Below are positions 1-7,528 of a stretch of DNA of 7,528 bases, piece after piece. The stretch comes from a virus. Its lineage: Duplodnaviria; Heunggongvirae; Uroviricota; Caudoviricetes. The DNA lies in IMG/VR virus record IMGVR_UViG_2534681703_000021. One strand, given 5' to 3'. The position numbers and the translations under genes are program-made. Numbering within the stretch: the first letter of the stretch is position 1; each line of letters begins with the position of its first letter. The notes below the pieces were generated by a model that worked only from the letters and a program-made list of their open reading frames with translations, did not search any database and was not told the origin of the DNA.

Positions 1-144
1 TTAATTTCGATTATTTTTCCCGTATGGAAAATTCTTAGAAACCGATCACATACAGCTGCATTTATTAAGGTTATCATCCGTTTCGCTGAAAAACATAACC
101 CATAAAATGCTAGCTGTACCAGGAACCACCTCCTTAGCCTGTGT

Positions 145-171
145 AATCTCCCTTACACGGGCTTATTTTTT
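145..171. other. P2-type phage attachment-site core (attR core if prophage)
   Basis: Minus-strand reading of 145-171 is AAAAAATAAGCCCGTGTAAGGGAGATT, which matches the 27-bp P2 att core as I remember it; it sits just beyond ogr and its terminator, where attP/attR lies in P2. The core sequence is recalled, not verified. Confidence 0.55.
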
Positions 172-206
172 ACGTACAACAAATTGAAATAAAAGGATTT
201 ATTTCT

Positions 207-230
207 GGTCACGTCCACACATTGACCACA
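207..230. repeat. Direct repeats GGTCAC / GTCCACA / GACCACA between the core and the terminator; candidate integrase arm-type binding sites (P' arm)
   Basis: ctGGTCACGTCCACACattGACCACAtcg; minus-strand reading gives TGTGGAC and TGTGGTC copies 11 bp apart. Location and repetition fit arm-type Int sites; the motif identity is only weakly recalled. Confidence 0.3.
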
Positions 231-235
231 TCGAC

Positions 236-265
236 AAAAAAGCCCCTCGACTGAGGGGCTTTCTG
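236..265 (-). terminator. Rho-independent terminator ending the late/ogr transcript (bidirectional in form)
   Basis: Perfect inverted repeat AGCCCCTC (241-248) / GAGGGGCT (253-260) with a 4-nt loop, extendable by A-T pairs; on the minus-strand RNA the stem is followed by UUUUUUG; lies 12 nt after the ogr stop. A T-rich run also follows on the plus strand. Confidence 0.75.
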
Positions 266-2229: not shown

Positions 2230-4677
2230 TTAACCGTCATGCATCATGCTGGCACGGGCGCGCGCACGTTTATCCCGCTCGTATTTTTCGAGCGCATCCT
2301 GTAACTGGCGGTCAAGCTGTGTCCCCGGCGCAGTACCACCCGTCAGGCTGATGTGATATTCGTTTTTACTCTGGTCTACATAAGAGCGGCCAGCCGGTGC
2401 CGTGACCGGCTGATAAGCCTGATAGCCTGCATAAGAGCTGGTCGCCGGAATATAACCACCGCTGCCATACGTGGCGGCTTGAGTTCTGGCGGCGGTCTGA
2501 TCAAGTGTGTCTGACTCTTTGTTGATAACACCGAGTTTTTCCAGTACCCAGTCAATACCGCTGCGCAGTTTGTTGAACGCATTAAGCGGCAGCATCAGCG
2601 CGTCAGCCAGTGCCTGCCCGAACATGACGCCCGTGTCACGGCAACGGTTCAGGGTGTCCTGGGTGGCTTTGACCGGGGCAATCAGGTTTTTAAACCACTG
2701 CCACGCGGCCTGTAACTTTTCGCCCAGCCAGTCAAACACCGGTTTCAGTGGCGAGAACAGCTCCCCCACCGGCGCAAATGCTGCTTTCAGCCCTTCAACC
2801 ACACCACCAAAGAATGCGCTGACAGGCTCCCAGTATTTACGGATAAGCAACGCCCCGGCGACAATGGCGGCCACCACAGCCACAATCGGCCAGCTAATCG
2901 CCCCGATGGCCGTCATAACAGCACTGCCAACCGTCGTGAAGATTGCCCCCATTGCGCCTGCTGCCGCGATGATGGCATTAATGCCGGTGATAACCGGCCA
3001 GGCTACAAGACCAATTGCACCGATGATGCCAATAAGCGCCAGTGCGCCACCGACAATAAGGCCGATGGTTGACGCCAGTGATTTGTTTTTCTGGATCCAG
3101 CCGTCGAGTTTTAACACATACTTTGTGGCCGTCTGCGTGAGATTACGCAGTGCGCCTTCCTGTTGGTCAAACAGGTCAGTCCCCACCGCCTCATAAGCAG
3201 ACTGAAACTCCTTAAAGTCACCGCCGAGGTTATCCTGCATGATTTTAACCAGCTCTTCCGTTTTACCGTCCGAGGCTTTCAGCGTGGCGGTCAGCTTATC
3301 CAGTTTTCCGCTTGCAGCCGCTGCCAGTAAAACGTTCGCTGATTTCAGGGCTTCCTCACCAAAAATGGTTTTAAGGTATTCCCCCTTCTGAGACGTTCCC
3401 AGCTTGTGTTTATCAAAGCTGGCCTGAATCTCTTTCAGAATGGTGAACAACGGACGCATATTTCCCTTTTTGTCCGAGGTTTTAACGCCAAGCTCTTTGA
3501 GTGCTTCCCATGCTTTCCCTGTCGGAGCCTGTAATCGGGTGACAACGGCACTACTACCAGTACCCGCCATTGACCCCCTGATGTTATTGTCATGCAGCAC
3601 ACCTGTCATGGCCGCTGCCTGCTCAAGACTTACACCCGCCGTCCTCGCAACCGGCCCGAGGTAAGTCAGTGCATCACTGAGCCCCTGAAAATCAGCCGCC
3701 GACTTATTCATCGTTGCCGACAACACGTCGCCCACATGGCTGACATCATCATTTGACAGTTGAAAGGATGCCTTAGTCCCCAGCAACAGTTGCGCGTTTT
3801 CTTCCATCGACCGCTGATTCGCCAGTGCCATATTCAGCGTGACCGGCGTTGCCGCCTGAATAGCCGCAGCATCTCCACCCGCTTTCGCGATGATTATCTG
3901 TGCACCGGCCGCATCATCCGCCGAGGCGGCGGTATTGTCGCCGAGCTGGCGCGCCTGTTTGCGTAGTGCGGTCATTTCGGCGGAGTCTTTTGCCACTCCG
4001 AGCACGGCCTGCAATTCTGAGTTTTTCTGCGCAAACTCATAACCGGGCATCAGCAACTTAACTCCGGCCATCGTTCCCGCCGCCGCAATCCCCACACCGG
4101 CAGCGCCTACTGAGGCCATATTTCCGGCCAGTTCCTTTCCGGCCTGATAACGCTGTTTGACTGCGTTAAGTTTTGCCTGTTGCGCACTGACACGCGCCAG
4201 CGCGTCGCGCTGCCGGTTAAGCTGTGCGGTGGTTTCACTGATACGGTTTTTCAGTCCCTGCTCATCATGTGCAAGATTGCGGGTATTAATTCCCACAGCG
4301 GCCAGTTCCCGCTGCTGGCGTTTAACGGAATCCGTCAGGCGGTTATATTTCGCCTGTAAGTCCTCCGCCGCACGCTTTGCGGATTCCAGCACTTTCGCCT
4401 GAGCACGGGTCGGACGTTCGGTGTTTTTAAACTGTGTGGCAAGGGCTTCGGCTTCCTGCCGAGCCTTTTCAAGTGCATGACCAGTCACGGCGAGCTGTGC
4501 ACTGGTCTTGCGAAATCCCTCAATACGGGATGCCTGACCGTTCAGCTCGCGCAGTGATTTTTGTGTTTCCCGGATATCCCCCGACAGCGATTTGCTCGCT
4601 GTACGGATGGATTTAAACGGGCGGGATGCCTGGTCAACAGCCCTGAGCAATACCTGTAATTTTACATTGTTACTCAT
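2230..4677 (-). CDS. T: Tail tape measure protein (P2 gpT-like), 815 aa
   Basis: 815-aa ORF with a coiled-coil-like N-terminal region (many Q/R/E/A/L heptad-like stretches), a long Gly/Ala/Ile-rich hydrophobic segment, and a C-terminal domain; positioned after E/E' as in all long-tailed phages; length equals P2 T as I recall. Confidence 0.9.
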   Translation of the reverse strand: MSNNVKLQVLLRAVDQASRPFKSIRTASKSLSGDIRETQKSLRELNGQASRIEGFRKTSAQLAVTGHALEKARQEAEALATQFKNTERPTRAQAKVLESAKRAAEDLQAKYNRLTDSVKRQQRELAAVGINTRNLAHDEQGLKNRISETTAQLNRQRDALARVSAQQAKLNAVKQRYQAGKELAGNMASVGAAGVGIAAAGTMAGVKLLMPGYEFAQKNSELQAVLGVAKDSAEMTALRKQARQLGDNTAASADDAAGAQIIIAKAGGDAAAIQAATPVTLNMALANQRSMEENAQLLLGTKASFQLSNDDVSHVGDVLSATMNKSAADFQGLSDALTYLGPVARTAGVSLEQAAAMTGVLHDNNIRGSMAGTGSSAVVTRLQAPTGKAWEALKELGVKTSDKKGNMRPLFTILKEIQASFDKHKLGTSQKGEYLKTIFGEEALKSANVLLAAAASGKLDKLTATLKASDGKTEELVKIMQDNLGGDFKEFQSAYEAVGTDLFDQQEGALRNLTQTATKYVLKLDGWIQKNKSLASTIGLIVGGALALIGIIGAIGLVAWPVITGINAIIAAAGAMGAIFTTVGSAVMTAIGAISWPIVAVVAAIVAGALLIRKYWEPVSAFFGGVVEGLKAAFAPVGELFSPLKPVFDWLGEKLQAAWQWFKNLIAPVKATQDTLNRCRDTGVMFGQALADALMLPLNAFNKLRSGIDWVLEKLGVINKESDTLDQTAARTQAATYGSGGYIPATSSYAGYQAYQPVTAPAGRSYVDQSKNEYHISLTGGTAPGTQLDRQLQDALEKYERDKRARARASMMHDG

Positions 4678-5097
4678 TCGTGTTTCCGCTTCGCCGGAGC
4701 GCCTTTTCGCGCCATGTGATGAGTTCGGTCAGGCTCATGGGATACAGTTCTGATGGCGGCCAGTGAAATATCACTGCCACATCCGCCATCAGGTCATCGA
4801 CCGAGAGATTTTTCGGAAACGTCACTGCACCGAGTTCGGCGACAAAAAACCGACCACCTTACCGGCCAGCGCCACAAGGTCAGGCAGTTCCAGCGCGGCG
4901 ACTTCCTGCTCGGTCAGCATCGGTGCCGTCATGCGCGGCAGCACTTTAATCAGTGCATCGACTTCGGAGTTCGCGACTGCAGCCAGACTGACACCGCGCA
5001 GCGTCCCGGCATTGGGTTTCATCAGCGTGACCTGTTCGATAACCTGCTCACCACGTTTGACCGGATTGTCCAGGGTAATGACGTTTTCTTTGTTCAT
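4670..5097 (-). CDS. E': Tail assembly chaperone E+E', -1 programmed frameshift fusion, predicted 142 aa
   Basis: Hand translation: zero frame to the F-L codons, then a -1 slip on TTTTTTG (4849..4843) continues as VAELGAVTFPKNLSVDDLMADVAVIFHWPPSELYPMSLTELITWREKALRRSGNTNE to TAA at 4672..4670. That is 85 + 57 = 142 aa, the size I recall for P2 E+E'. The stop overlaps the tape-measure start by 8 nt. Confidence 0.75.
4822..5097 (-). CDS. E: Tail assembly chaperone E (P2 gpE-like), 91 aa, zero-frame product
   Basis: 91-aa ORF between tube and tape measure, the conserved position of tail chaperones; ends ...KVVGFLSPNSVQ with the slippery heptamer T-TTT-TTG spanning the F-L codons. Confidence 0.85.
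   Translation of the reverse strand: MNKENVITLDNPVKRGEQVIEQVTLMKPNAGTLRGVSLAAVANSEVDALIKVLPRMTAPMLTEQEVAALELPDLVALAGKVVGFLSPNSVQ
4843..4849 (-). other. Slippery heptamer T TTT TTG (recoding signal for the -1 frameshift)
   Basis: Minus-strand sequence GG-TTTTTT-G read in zero frame as GGT TTT TTG; a canonical X XXY YYZ -1 site located 7 codons before the E stop. Confidence 0.8.
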
Positions 5098-5153: not shown

Positions 5154-5672
5154 TCACAGGCCGATATTGCGGCGGTGTTGCTCCAGCCGGTCGACGCCGT
5201 TCACCTTCTCAATCATGTTGATGGTGTCGATTTCGACCAGCTCCTTACCGTCCATCGTCAGCCGGAAATAGGTGCAGACCACGGAGATTTTCGACTCGGT
5301 GTCTTCTCCCTGTTTGCCCTCGCCGGTGTCGATTTCTTTCTGACGTCCACGCATGACCACCTCGACGGCCACCGTTTCGCCGGTATCGTCGCGCTGGTAA
5401 GAGCCTGCAAAACGAATCGGTACGGCATCCACACCGGTTGCGGCGTAAAGCTCCCAGATAACCGAATCCGGGAAGCCACCGAGCGACCACTCCATTGACA
5501 GCGCATCGTCATCAAGGCCGAGGTCTACCGGTGCGCTGCCGTTCATCCCCGCACCGCGATAGTTTTCGAGCTTACGGGTCAGTTTTGGTAGCGTGACGGA
5601 CTTCGCGACGCCCTGATAGCTGTAGCCGTTCAGAAAGACGTTCATTAACTTGAGTTTGCGCGGCATTGCCAT
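5154..5672 (-). CDS. FII: Tail tube protein (P2 gpFII-like), 172 aa
   Basis: 172-aa ORF (MAMPRKLKLMNVFLNGYSYQG...), same length as P2 FII as I recall; 12-nt gap after the sheath stop containing a GGAG Shine-Dalgarno; conserved sheath-tube order. Confidence 0.9.
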   Translation of the reverse strand: MAMPRKLKLMNVFLNGYSYQGVAKSVTLPKLTRKLENYRGAGMNGSAPVDLGLDDDALSMEWSLGGFPDSVIWELYAATGVDAVPIRFAGSYQRDDTGETVAVEVVMRGRQKEIDTGEGKQGEDTESKISVVCTYFRLTMDGKELVEIDTINMIEKVNGVDRLEQHRRNIGL

Positions 5673-5684
5673 CGGTCAGGCTCC

Positions 5685-6875
5685 TTAATTGCTGTTAACC
5701 GAGGTGACCAGATTTGCCAGGTATTTATCGGTAATACGCTGGCGCAGGGTCAGGTTTTCAAGAGGAGGCACCGGGGTATAGTCGTAGTCGATATACAGTT
5801 TTCCGGCCTTGAGGGTTTCCGCATCGTTGGATTCTTCGCTGAACCAGCAGGTCGCATCCACGATATAGCCGTTTGTTTTCAGCTCACGGAATTTGGCATT
5901 GATGCCGTCAACGATGTCACGAATCAGCGTTGCGGTGATGGGCTTGTCCACCGCCCACATGTGCGCCTCAGCCATCGTGTCGGCCAGTACCTGTGCGGTG
6001 CGGGTGTAGTTTTCAAAGAGGAACAGCGGGTCATCAGAGCAGGTACGGTTACCCCAGAATCGGAAACCGTCACGGCGAATCAGTGTTGTGACGCCTGACT
6101 CGTTAAGCAGGTCAGCATCGGTGCCGGACTCCTGCAAATCCCAGAATACAGAGGCGCTGATGCCGGTAACACCGTTTACCCCGACGTTGGACAGCGTTTT
6201 ATGCCAGCCCTGCTCCTGGTCGATTTTAGCGCGCAGACCCAGCGCACGGGCGGTGGCATACGCGGTGGCGGTGGTACTGGTGACCGTATCCCATGCGAGG
6301 AAATCCGGCCAGATGACCATCAGCTCACGCTGGCTGAAATTCTGGCGGTAGGCTTTCACCTCGGAAATGGTCTTACAGCCCCATGCGCTGATATATCCGA
6401 AAGCGCGCAGCTTCTGACAGACTGATGCCAGTGCAACTGCCACCTCTTTGGTGTCCAGTCCCGGCACGCCGAGAATACGCGGTTTAACACCGGTTACCGA
6501 CTCCGCCGCCAGCAGGGCTTTCAGTCCGGTGTACTGACCGTTTTCGTCGGTGGTGCCGATGATATTGGAAACGGTCTGCGCAAGTTTCGTTTCTTCGTCT
6601 TCGCCGGTGCCGTCTTCCACACGTACAACAACGGTGACCGGTTTTGACTGGTCAGCGATGGCCTGCAACGACGCCGCCAGCGTGCCTTTTTTACCGGCCT
6701 TTGCAATTGCGCTCTGCACATTGGTAATCAGCACAGGTTTATTGAGGGGGAAGGTTTCCGCATCCGCATCGCTGGCCGTGCAGACCATGCCGACAATGGC
6801 AGTGGATACGGTGGAAATGACGCGGGTGCCGTCGTTAATCTCCAGCACCTGCACGCCGTGATGATAGTCACTCAT
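5685..6875 (-). CDS. FI: Contractile tail sheath protein (P2 gpFI-like), 396 aa
   Basis: 396-aa ORF starting MSDYHHGVQVLEINDGTRV, same length as P2 FI as I recall; GGAG Shine-Dalgarno 8-11 nt upstream (rc of 6883-6886); immediately upstream of the tube gene as in P2 and other myovirus tail modules. Confidence 0.9.
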   Translation of the reverse strand: MSDYHHGVQVLEINDGTRVISTVSTAIVGMVCTASDADAETFPLNKPVLITNVQSAIAKAGKKGTLAASLQAIADQSKPVTVVVRVEDGTGEDEETKLAQTVSNIIGTTDENGQYTGLKALLAAESVTGVKPRILGVPGLDTKEVAVALASVCQKLRAFGYISAWGCKTISEVKAYRQNFSQRELMVIWPDFLAWDTVTSTTATAYATARALGLRAKIDQEQGWHKTLSNVGVNGVTGISASVFWDLQESGTDADLLNESGVTTLIRRDGFRFWGNRTCSDDPLFLFENYTRTAQVLADTMAEAHMWAVDKPITATLIRDIVDGINAKFRELKTNGYIVDATCWFSEESNDAETLKAGKLYIDYDYTPVPPLENLTLRQRITDKYLANLVTSVNSN

Positions 6876-6990
6876 CCGTTTAACTCCGTGGTTAATGGGT
6901 GAGTGGTATTTTCAGTTGTGCCGGAGATGTCAGGCTATTTGTCCCGGTTGGCTAAGGGATGACACAATTTATTCTTTGTCGCTGATGAGG
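6876..6990 (-). promoter_or_regulatory. Region expected to hold the Ogr-dependent late promoter for the FI operon (P_F); contains dyad GACA-N12-TGTC at 6961-6980
   Basis: Only 59 bp separate the invertase stop from the FI start, so the promoter must overlap the invertase 3' end. The perfect 4-bp dyad with a 12-bp spacer is centred about 95 bp upstream of the FI ATG. It is not the TGT-N12-ACA arrangement I recall for P2/P4 late promoters, and no convincing -10 was found. Confidence 0.25.
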
Positions 6991-7528
6991 GAAATTTTTT
7001 ATAGAGCGTGGACAGGCCAATATCAAAAATCAGCGCCACACGTTGACGAGATTCCCCCGCAGCCAGCAACCGTCCGACCTGCTCCCACTCACTCGTGGTG
7101 AGTTTCGGTCGTCTGCCACCAATACGACCTTTGGCTCTGGCTGCTTCCAGTCCGGCGCGTGTCCGCTCGACAATGAGTTCTCGTTCCATTTCAGCCAGGG
7201 CACCCATCACATGAAAGAAAAAACGCCCCATCGGCGTGCTGGTATCAATGGCATCCGTCAGGCTGCGAAAATTAATGCCGCGTTCGCGCAGCTCCTCAAC
7301 CAGAATGACCAGATGCCGCATACTACGCCCCAGCCGGTCCAGCTTCCAGACCACCAGTGTATCCCCCTCCGATAATGTCCTGAGCAGTTTTTTCAGTCCC
7401 GGCCTGTCGGACTTCGTGCCGCTGATTTTGTCCTCAAAAATCAGCTCACATCCTGCGCACTCCAGCGCGTTACGCTGCAATTCCGTGTTCTGGTCATTTG
7501 TTGACACGCGTACATAGCCAATAAGCAT
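6935..7528 (-). CDS. Serine recombinase, DNA invertase (Gin/Pin/Cin/Hin family), 197 aa, complete
   Basis: N-terminus MLIGYVRVSTNDQNTELQRNAL with the catalytic Ser in VRVSTNDQ; resolvase/invertase core motifs (GDTLVVWKLDRLGRS, MGRFFFHVMGALAEMERELI); C-terminal HTH (GRRPKLT...LSTLYKKFP). The ATG is the last three bases of the window (7526-7528), so promoter and RBS lie outside. TAG stop at 6935-6937. Confidence 0.9.
   Translation of the reverse strand: MLIGYVRVSTNDQNTELQRNALECAGCELIFEDKISGTKSDRPGLKKLLRTLSEGDTLVVWKLDRLGRSMRHLVILVEELRERGINFRSLTDAIDTSTPMGRFFFHVMGALAEMERELIVERTRAGLEAARAKGRIGGRRPKLTTSEWEQVGRLLAAGESRQRVALIFDIGLSTLYKKFPSSATKNKLCHPLANRDK

Follow-up and report, generated by a model that had tools for sequence, protein, structure and literature searches.

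In the window, which is the whole 7,528-nucleotide stretch of DNA analysed here, positions 145-171 are very probably the attR core of a P2-type (Peduovirus) prophage, attR being written P-O-B' in P2 nomenclature. As judged from sequence comparison, this prophage resides at the preferred E. coli P2 site, the 3' end of the small RNA gene cyaR between yegQ and yegR. The older P2 literature names this site locI, and the P2 att sites were reportedly studied by Yu, Bertani and Haggard-Ljungquist in 1989 and by Yu and Haggard-Ljungquist in 1993. The attR in the window is an ordinary right-hand P2 junction with biology that is already known, because 'cyaR RNA' is already in the literature as a P2 insertion site. 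In E. coli W it is occupied by a P2-type prophage, in K-12 by the ogr-D' remnant and in B by a P2-type element, and Crooks has it empty (PMC3032704).

The 27-mer AAAAAATAAGCCCGTGTAAGGGAGATT has a single copy in the window, on the minus strand at 145-171 with 0 mismatches, and 200 shuffles of the window gave 0 matches when up to three mismatches were allowed. It is base-identical to the feature 'attP' / 'Int attP core' of the P2 record AF063097 (24356-24382), and the match to the P2 core proposed in the earlier note is exact. The positions of the att sites were taken over from the GenBank annotation of this record with an offset of 1356. The same note had placed the stretch where attP lies relative to ogr in P2, and this holds as well: the core, an IHF site, an Int P-arm site, a terminator and ogr follow one another in the same layout as in P2.

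The breakpoints of host and phage homology were located with a 600-base query from the left end of the window. P2 and its closest relatives show homology from exactly position 145 onward (95-97% identity). E. coli chromosomes that carry no phage DNA here, of which there are thousands, align over 1-171 or 1-172 with 99.4% identity and no further. Since the P2 matches start at 145, the prophage-free matches end at 171/172 and the 27-bp overlap between them is the core, this is a host-phage junction. When the window was aligned jointly with P2 attP and the prophage-free E. coli YPE3, it tracked the chromosome to the left of the core and P2 to the right of it. Positions 1-172 have 1 mismatch each to K-12 and to YPE3, at position 23, and positions 145-272 are identical to P2 at 127 of 128 bases, with C for T at position 180 as the sole difference. 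The likeness to the attP and attR of phage P2 takes in the 27-bp core, the P arm with its one different base in 128, the IHF and Int sites, the terminator, ogr and the yegQ-cyaR flank.

Prophage genes and complete relatives

To the right of the core, the window encodes late genes of P2 type on the minus strand. The first is ogr (273-491), which codes for the late-gene activator of 72 aa and was assigned by Pfam Ogr_Delta (76.9 bits), NCBIfam PRK09678 (177.6 bits) and the P2 annotation. It is followed by gene D (573-1736), coding for the tail/baseplate hub protein (Pfam Phage_GPD), which at 387 aa is of full length and agrees with P2 gpD in length and position. Five further tail genes were assigned by Pfam and by the annotation of a 98.4%-identical relative: U (1736-2215; Phage_P2_GpU), the tape measure gene T (2230-4677; PhageMin_Tail), E and E' (4670-5097; Phage_TAC_7), the tube gene FII (5154-5672; Phage_tube) and the sheath gene FI (5685-6875; Phage_sheath_1). 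The lengths of the late-gene reading frames agree with the annotation of this relative, and those of ogr and D with P2 itself. A short minus-strand reading frame at 4670-4825 overlaps the end of gene E (4822-5097, minus strand), at the place of the P2 frameshift product E+E'. Its counterpart in the relative is annotated as 'GpE family phage tail protein', and the layout looks like the expected frameshift arrangement of the tail chaperone.

At the right end of the window, outside the att site, a serine DNA invertase of 197 aa is encoded at 6935-7528 on the minus strand (Pfam Resolvase and HTH_7). The annotation of phage pro483 calls it 'DNA invertase'; the tail region of the window is 97.8% identical to this phage, in which a serine DNA invertase likewise lies past FI. 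In a close relative, genes for tail fibre and tail-fibre assembly, fragmented and in opposite orientation, come after the invertase, a layout that suggests an invertible host-range segment. The prophage is thus distinct from P2 itself: its tail region shares about 97-98% identity with phages such as pro483, and the invertase past FI lies outside the matched part of the phages with the P2 core. Two of the latter, P24C9 and 10W, match the window only to about position 6967, which marks a mosaic boundary.

The closest complete genome is that of E. coli 90-9280 (NZ_CP024240), with about 98.4% identity over all 7,528 bases. Its gene order is yegQ, core, ogr, then capsid and terminase genes, replication genes, cox, C, int, a second core and yegR. 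The two cores are exact, lie in direct orientation and are 33,711 bp apart. The integrase of this prophage is identical to P2 Int at 335 of 337 residues, and two perfect TGTGGACA repeats stand at the end of int. No sequence 100% identical to the window was found, the best matches being 98.5% (complete E. coli genomes) and 97.2% over 6,969 bp (an IMG/VR contig that has the core at the same coordinates as the window). The window ends 7.4 kb into the prophage, so that the evidence for a second core and for int comes from relatives rather than from the window's own genome, in which attL and int are presumably present. If the prophage is complete, AATCTCCCTTACACGGGCTTATTTTTT would be expected in unchanged orientation 28-36 kb further right, between a P2-type int with two TGTGGACA repeats and the yegR flank.

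The junction was also seen in larger collections. Among 120 IMG/VR loci that hold the core, 52 have the arrangement cyaR-core-P arm and 65 the arrangement P' arm-core-host flank, which are the two junction types expected of lysogens. The cyaR-ogr-D junction was found in 1,123 of 5,426 complete E. coli genomes, about a fifth, a count that includes remnants of the type found in K-12.

Such remnants provide the principal alternative, namely that the window holds a real attR belonging to a defective or truncated P2-type element that lacks int and attL and no longer recombines. The model for this is the ogrK-yegZ remnant of K-12 ('cryptic prophage PR-X', NC_000913.3). It has the same site and the same cyaR-core-P arm-ogr junction, differs from the window in the host flank by 1 base, is annotated in RefSeq as overlapping the cyaR end and has a partial core at its far end. 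The junction count takes in elements of this kind, and the window stops short of the far end of the prophage. However, the K-12 remnant has only ogr and a D fragment (629 bp) fused to the partial core, whereas the window has full-length D followed by the whole U-T-E-FII-FI module and the invertase, intact over 7.4 kb. The closest relatives over the whole window are complete prophages with int and attL. For these reasons, a truncated remnant is unlikely, and we assign it only a small probability beside a prophage of ordinary P2 type. At the right end of the K-12 remnant (locus L005, 2313-2324), the partial core reads TACACGGGCTTATTTTTTT and has one extra T; a core broken off at this end implies that the deletion that formed the remnant stopped inside attL.

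The cyaR side of the junction

The left end of the window is chromosomal. Position 1 is the first base past the yegQ stop codon in three E. coli genomes, and by alignment to K-12 and to a prophage-free strain, positions 1-84 (plus strand) are the intergenic spacer between yegQ (trhP) and cyaR, with the presumed cyaR promoter, on the B' side of attR. The spacer is followed by a complete cyaR (ryeE) small RNA gene at 85-171 on the plus strand. The Rfam model RF00112 (CyaR_RyeE) matches 83-168 over its full length (model positions 1-85 of 85; E 7e-20), scoring 100.7 bits where the gathering score is 47. In K-12, cyaR (b4438) is an ncRNA of 87 nt that lies 84 bp past the yegQ (trhP) stop codon, which maps it to 85-171 of the window with 100% identity. 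Positions 1-144, in which the earlier note had seen no integrase-like reading frame, are therefore the host spacer and the 5' part of cyaR; that note overlooked what the left flank is, a small RNA gene with the core as its 3' end.

The intrinsic terminator of CyaR spans 136-171 (plus strand) and consists of an 11-bp stem (136-146/153-163), a 6-nt loop and a U-tract (164-171). The hairpin was found by the terminator scan, as inverted repeat I1 and in both the minimum free energy and the centroid RNA fold. The core is exactly the last 27 nt of cyaR and comprises the final two bases of the 5' stem half, the loop, the 3' stem half and the U-tract. Upstream of cyaR, a generic sigma-70 scan returned no consensus promoter. 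The blank scan would be unsurprising if the cyaR promoter depends on CRP and lacks a good -35 element. Read in this light, a CRP-like sequence TTAGAAACCGATCACA at 35-50 and a -10-like TATCAT at 72-77, both picked out by eye only in a stretch identical to K-12, are presumed candidate elements of the cyaR promoter.

This flank bears on whether the window could come from a free P2-like phage genome with 145-171 as attP, a reading that the core and the right-hand arm would fit, as they are indistinguishable from attP. However, the flank is that of E. coli yegQ-cyaR from 1 to 172, with its single mismatch and a complete CyaR by Rfam, and it contains no Cox site, P' arm or end of int. The Cox site, the Int 'P' arm' site and int, which P2 has on the flank of the core that does not face ogr, are all absent from the window. 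An alignment to the P2 attP region revealed no similarity between the left flank and the P' arm or the end of int. Thus, the free-phage reading is ruled out by the alignment of the left flank to the chromosome rather than to P2, and its probability is practically nil; the earlier view of an integrated prophage with host DNA to the left agrees with this alignment. That the 27-mer is merely the cyaR terminator, with a likeness to the phage site that has no recombination meaning here, is just as improbable: it also ends cyaR in prophage-free Escherichia, Shigella, Kluyvera and Enterobacter genomes, but the core in the window adjoins 7.4 kb of P2-type DNA that begins with the P arm, the junction lies exactly at the core edges, and as an exclusive reading this was rejected by the alignment, the terminator being the attachment site so that both descriptions hold.

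In a set with one representative genome per species, the exact core occurs 21 times, and the 5' part of cyaR stands before it in 20 of these cases, the exception being one attL. These occurrences span Escherichia, Shigella, Kluyvera and Enterobacter hormaechei. Previously, the CyaR terminator was found to allow 41% read-through in an hfq-deleted reporter background, which was taken as intrinsic to the terminator (PMC9765468). In a lysogen, CyaR transcripts that read through would cross the IHF and Int sites of the P arm and then reach the symmetric ogr hairpin at 239-262. In this way, CRP-driven transcription from the host might affect the occupancy of attR, or ogr.

The P arm and recombination at attR

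Positions 172-262 correspond to the P arm of P2 and contain an IHF site, an Int arm site with two arm-type repeats and the ogr terminator. The region around the core runs from an 11-bp hairpin with a plus-strand T-tract through an AT-rich stretch and GGTCACGTCCACACATTGACCACATCGA to a 10-bp GC-rich hairpin and the leftward 72-codon reading frame. The predicted IHF binding region (170-203, minus strand) was transferred from the 'protein_bind IHF' feature of AF063097; the earlier note had passed over this site between the core and the arm repeats. It contains an IHF-consensus-like 13-mer TTTCAATTTGTTG at 177-189 (minus strand) with 1 mismatch to WATCAANNNNTTR, and the only base that differs from P2 (position 180) falls within the N part of this motif. 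The predicted Int arm-type site (207-234, minus strand), transferred from 'protein_bind Int, P arm' of the same record, is identical to P2. The terminator of the ogr transcript and F operon, which is Rho-independent, was placed at 239-262 (minus strand) by the P2 annotation and by a perfect 10-bp inverted repeat, I2. Its hairpin is symmetric: as a plus-strand terminator it was called by the scan, and in the minus-strand reading TTTTTTGT comes after the stem GCCCCTC/GAGGGGC. The arm between 172 and 238 lies between two terminators that converge on it, the plus-strand one of cyaR and the minus-strand one of ogr.

Integrases of P2 type have the arm consensus tgTGGaCa (PMC3448106). Two arm-type repeats, TGTGGACG at 212-219 and TGTGGTCA at 223-230 (both on the minus strand), have the same orientation, a spacing of 11 bp and 1 mismatch each to this consensus. 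Of the three short direct repeats reported earlier between the core and the terminator, these two 8-mers stand, and the third is found only as a loose GNNCAC pattern (GGTCAC, 207-212). No third arm-type repeat with at most one mismatch to the consensus is present between the core and the terminator, and 172-238 contains no exact direct repeat of at least 6 nt. The arm has just one other consensus-like 8-mer, TCTGGTCA at 204-211, which has 2 mismatches and lies on the opposite strand. Across the window, 6 matches to the arm-consensus 8-mer were observed against 5.6 expected, which is the chance level. The arm and IHF motifs were rejected as stand-alone statistical evidence, as taken alone they are not above chance. 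Since motif matches occur at the chance rate, the assignment of the Int arm and IHF sites rests on the near-identity of 145-272 to the annotated P2 attP arm (127/128).

As a heterobivalent tyrosine recombinase, P2 Int links sites of core type with sites of arm type. By analogy, the core-binding and catalytic domains of Int would occupy the core and the N-terminal domain the arm-type repeats, IHF would bend the P arm between them, and strand exchange would take place inside the 27 bp common to attP and attB. After integration, the cyaR-proximal junction would run from host DNA through the core into the P arm (IHF at 170-203, Int repeats at 207-234) and on to the ogr terminator and ogr. As attP bears the same 27 bp as the cyaR end, integration restores an unaltered cyaR at attR. 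The lysogen would retain this complete gene, and attL, beside int and with the Cox sites, would keep just a 27-bp copy of the gene end. In excision, attR may be expected to contribute the core, the IHF-bent P arm and two P-arm Int sites, and attL the Cox-bound P' arm. Excision in P2 depends on Cox, for which the GenBank record AF063097 places the binding site on the int side of the core, and the action of Cox at attP and attL has been discussed (PMC3936717). We infer from the sequence that the attR of the window binds Int and IHF and is active in recombination.

Several other elements integrate at the 3' ends of small RNA genes, including phage 186 in tRNA-Ile, Fels-2 and SopE-phi in ssrA and P2-type elements at rybB (PMC3448106, PMC3032704). 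As in the window, their core spans the 3' end of the RNA gene, which stays intact, and the terminator dyad of the RNA lies within and next to the core. In contrast to those cases, the RNA targeted in the window is not a tRNA or tmRNA but an Hfq-dependent sRNA, and the core, at 27 bp a short one, covers just the terminator loop, the 3' stem half and the U-tract. The attR of phage lambda follows the same logic: an IHF bend brings together the core-type and arm-type sites of a heterobivalent Int, and a small DNA-bending factor sets directionality. Unlike lambda, P2 has Cox binding at the int-proximal P' arm (attL) and only IHF and Int sites in the ogr-proximal arm, and the site sequences are unrelated.

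Comparison with other P2-like phages divides this region in two. Phages that share the P2 core match the window from position 145, and others, which have different attachment specificities (pro483, S164, 11W, P24A7b and more), match it only from 185. Positions 145-184, the core with 13 further bp, thus behave as an exchangeable specificity segment, with the Int arm repeats and the IHF-distal part conserved. A variable core-binding domain has been described in the integrases of P2-like phages, in line with such a swap of 145-184 (PMC3448106). A diverged variant of the P arm (beginning GCCTGTAATAAACTGAAATAAAAGAATTTATTTCTCTCAATGTCCAC) stands directly past the cyaR core in E. coli ECDA1023 (locus L007) and in Kluyvera intermedia (locus L025), which implies that the cyaR site also serves P2-like elements whose arm differs in sequence, in Kluyvera too.

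The E. coli site and the meaning of the junction

An earlier P2-like element may once have inserted at the preferred E. coli site and left its scar there, in the form of a P arm and a distal core, both decayed, with yegR between them; we hold this reading to be about as likely as not. It draws on the prophage-free E. coli YPE3 (locus L002, 3145-3980), on K-12 (L005, 2313-3170) and on L004 (34863-35740), L026 and L019. Past the core, the alignment of prophage-free E. coli to the P2 P arm has 36 columns, 33 of them identical. Its local score is 43, and 0 of 1000 shuffles, which averaged 17.2 and peaked at 30, reach it. The putative relic arm has a 16-bp gap in the IHF region, and one arm-type repeat, TGTGGTCA, is still intact in it. 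A fuller, ungapped version is present in Escherichia sp. MOD1-EC7003. E. ruysiae and Kluyvera are without the relic and without yegR, a whole segment of roughly 800 bp, and have yegS soon after cyaR.

The best core-like 27-mer between the core and yegS in E. coli matches at 18 of 27 positions (L002, 3947-3973). The probability of such a match is 2.4e-5 per position, and 33 of 1000 shuffles equal it anywhere in the region. This candidate decayed core sits just before the start of the alignment with the E. ruysiae post-core flank, where synteny with E. ruysiae and Kluyvera resumes. A fossil P' arm was not detectable near it in the empty site (local score 22, with shuffles reaching up to 24). The proximal core alone would have stayed perfect, through selection on the CyaR terminator. 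No mention of a relic insertion was found in the searchable literature, whose coverage does not extend to the older primary papers on P2 att. If the scar is real, the attL of modern lysogens would be P'-core-(relic P), an attP-like arrangement, and it may be speculated that the leftover arm site could affect site preference or excision.

For the modern prophage, the junction fixes the right boundary of P2-type DNA in the window: the core at 145-171 is common to both sides, and phage DNA proper begins at 172. Positions 85-171 are a complete and functional-looking cyaR, and annotation should keep this gene out of the prophage call. The value of the junction lies mainly in annotation, and it raises no new question. 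The comparison of phages adds a practical point, namely that 145-184 can be treated as a swappable specificity module, with the arm common from 185 onward. Thus, the window provides another case of a known principle, in which temperate elements hit the 3' ends of stable RNA genes and bring a copy of the end with them, so that integration is harmless to the host.
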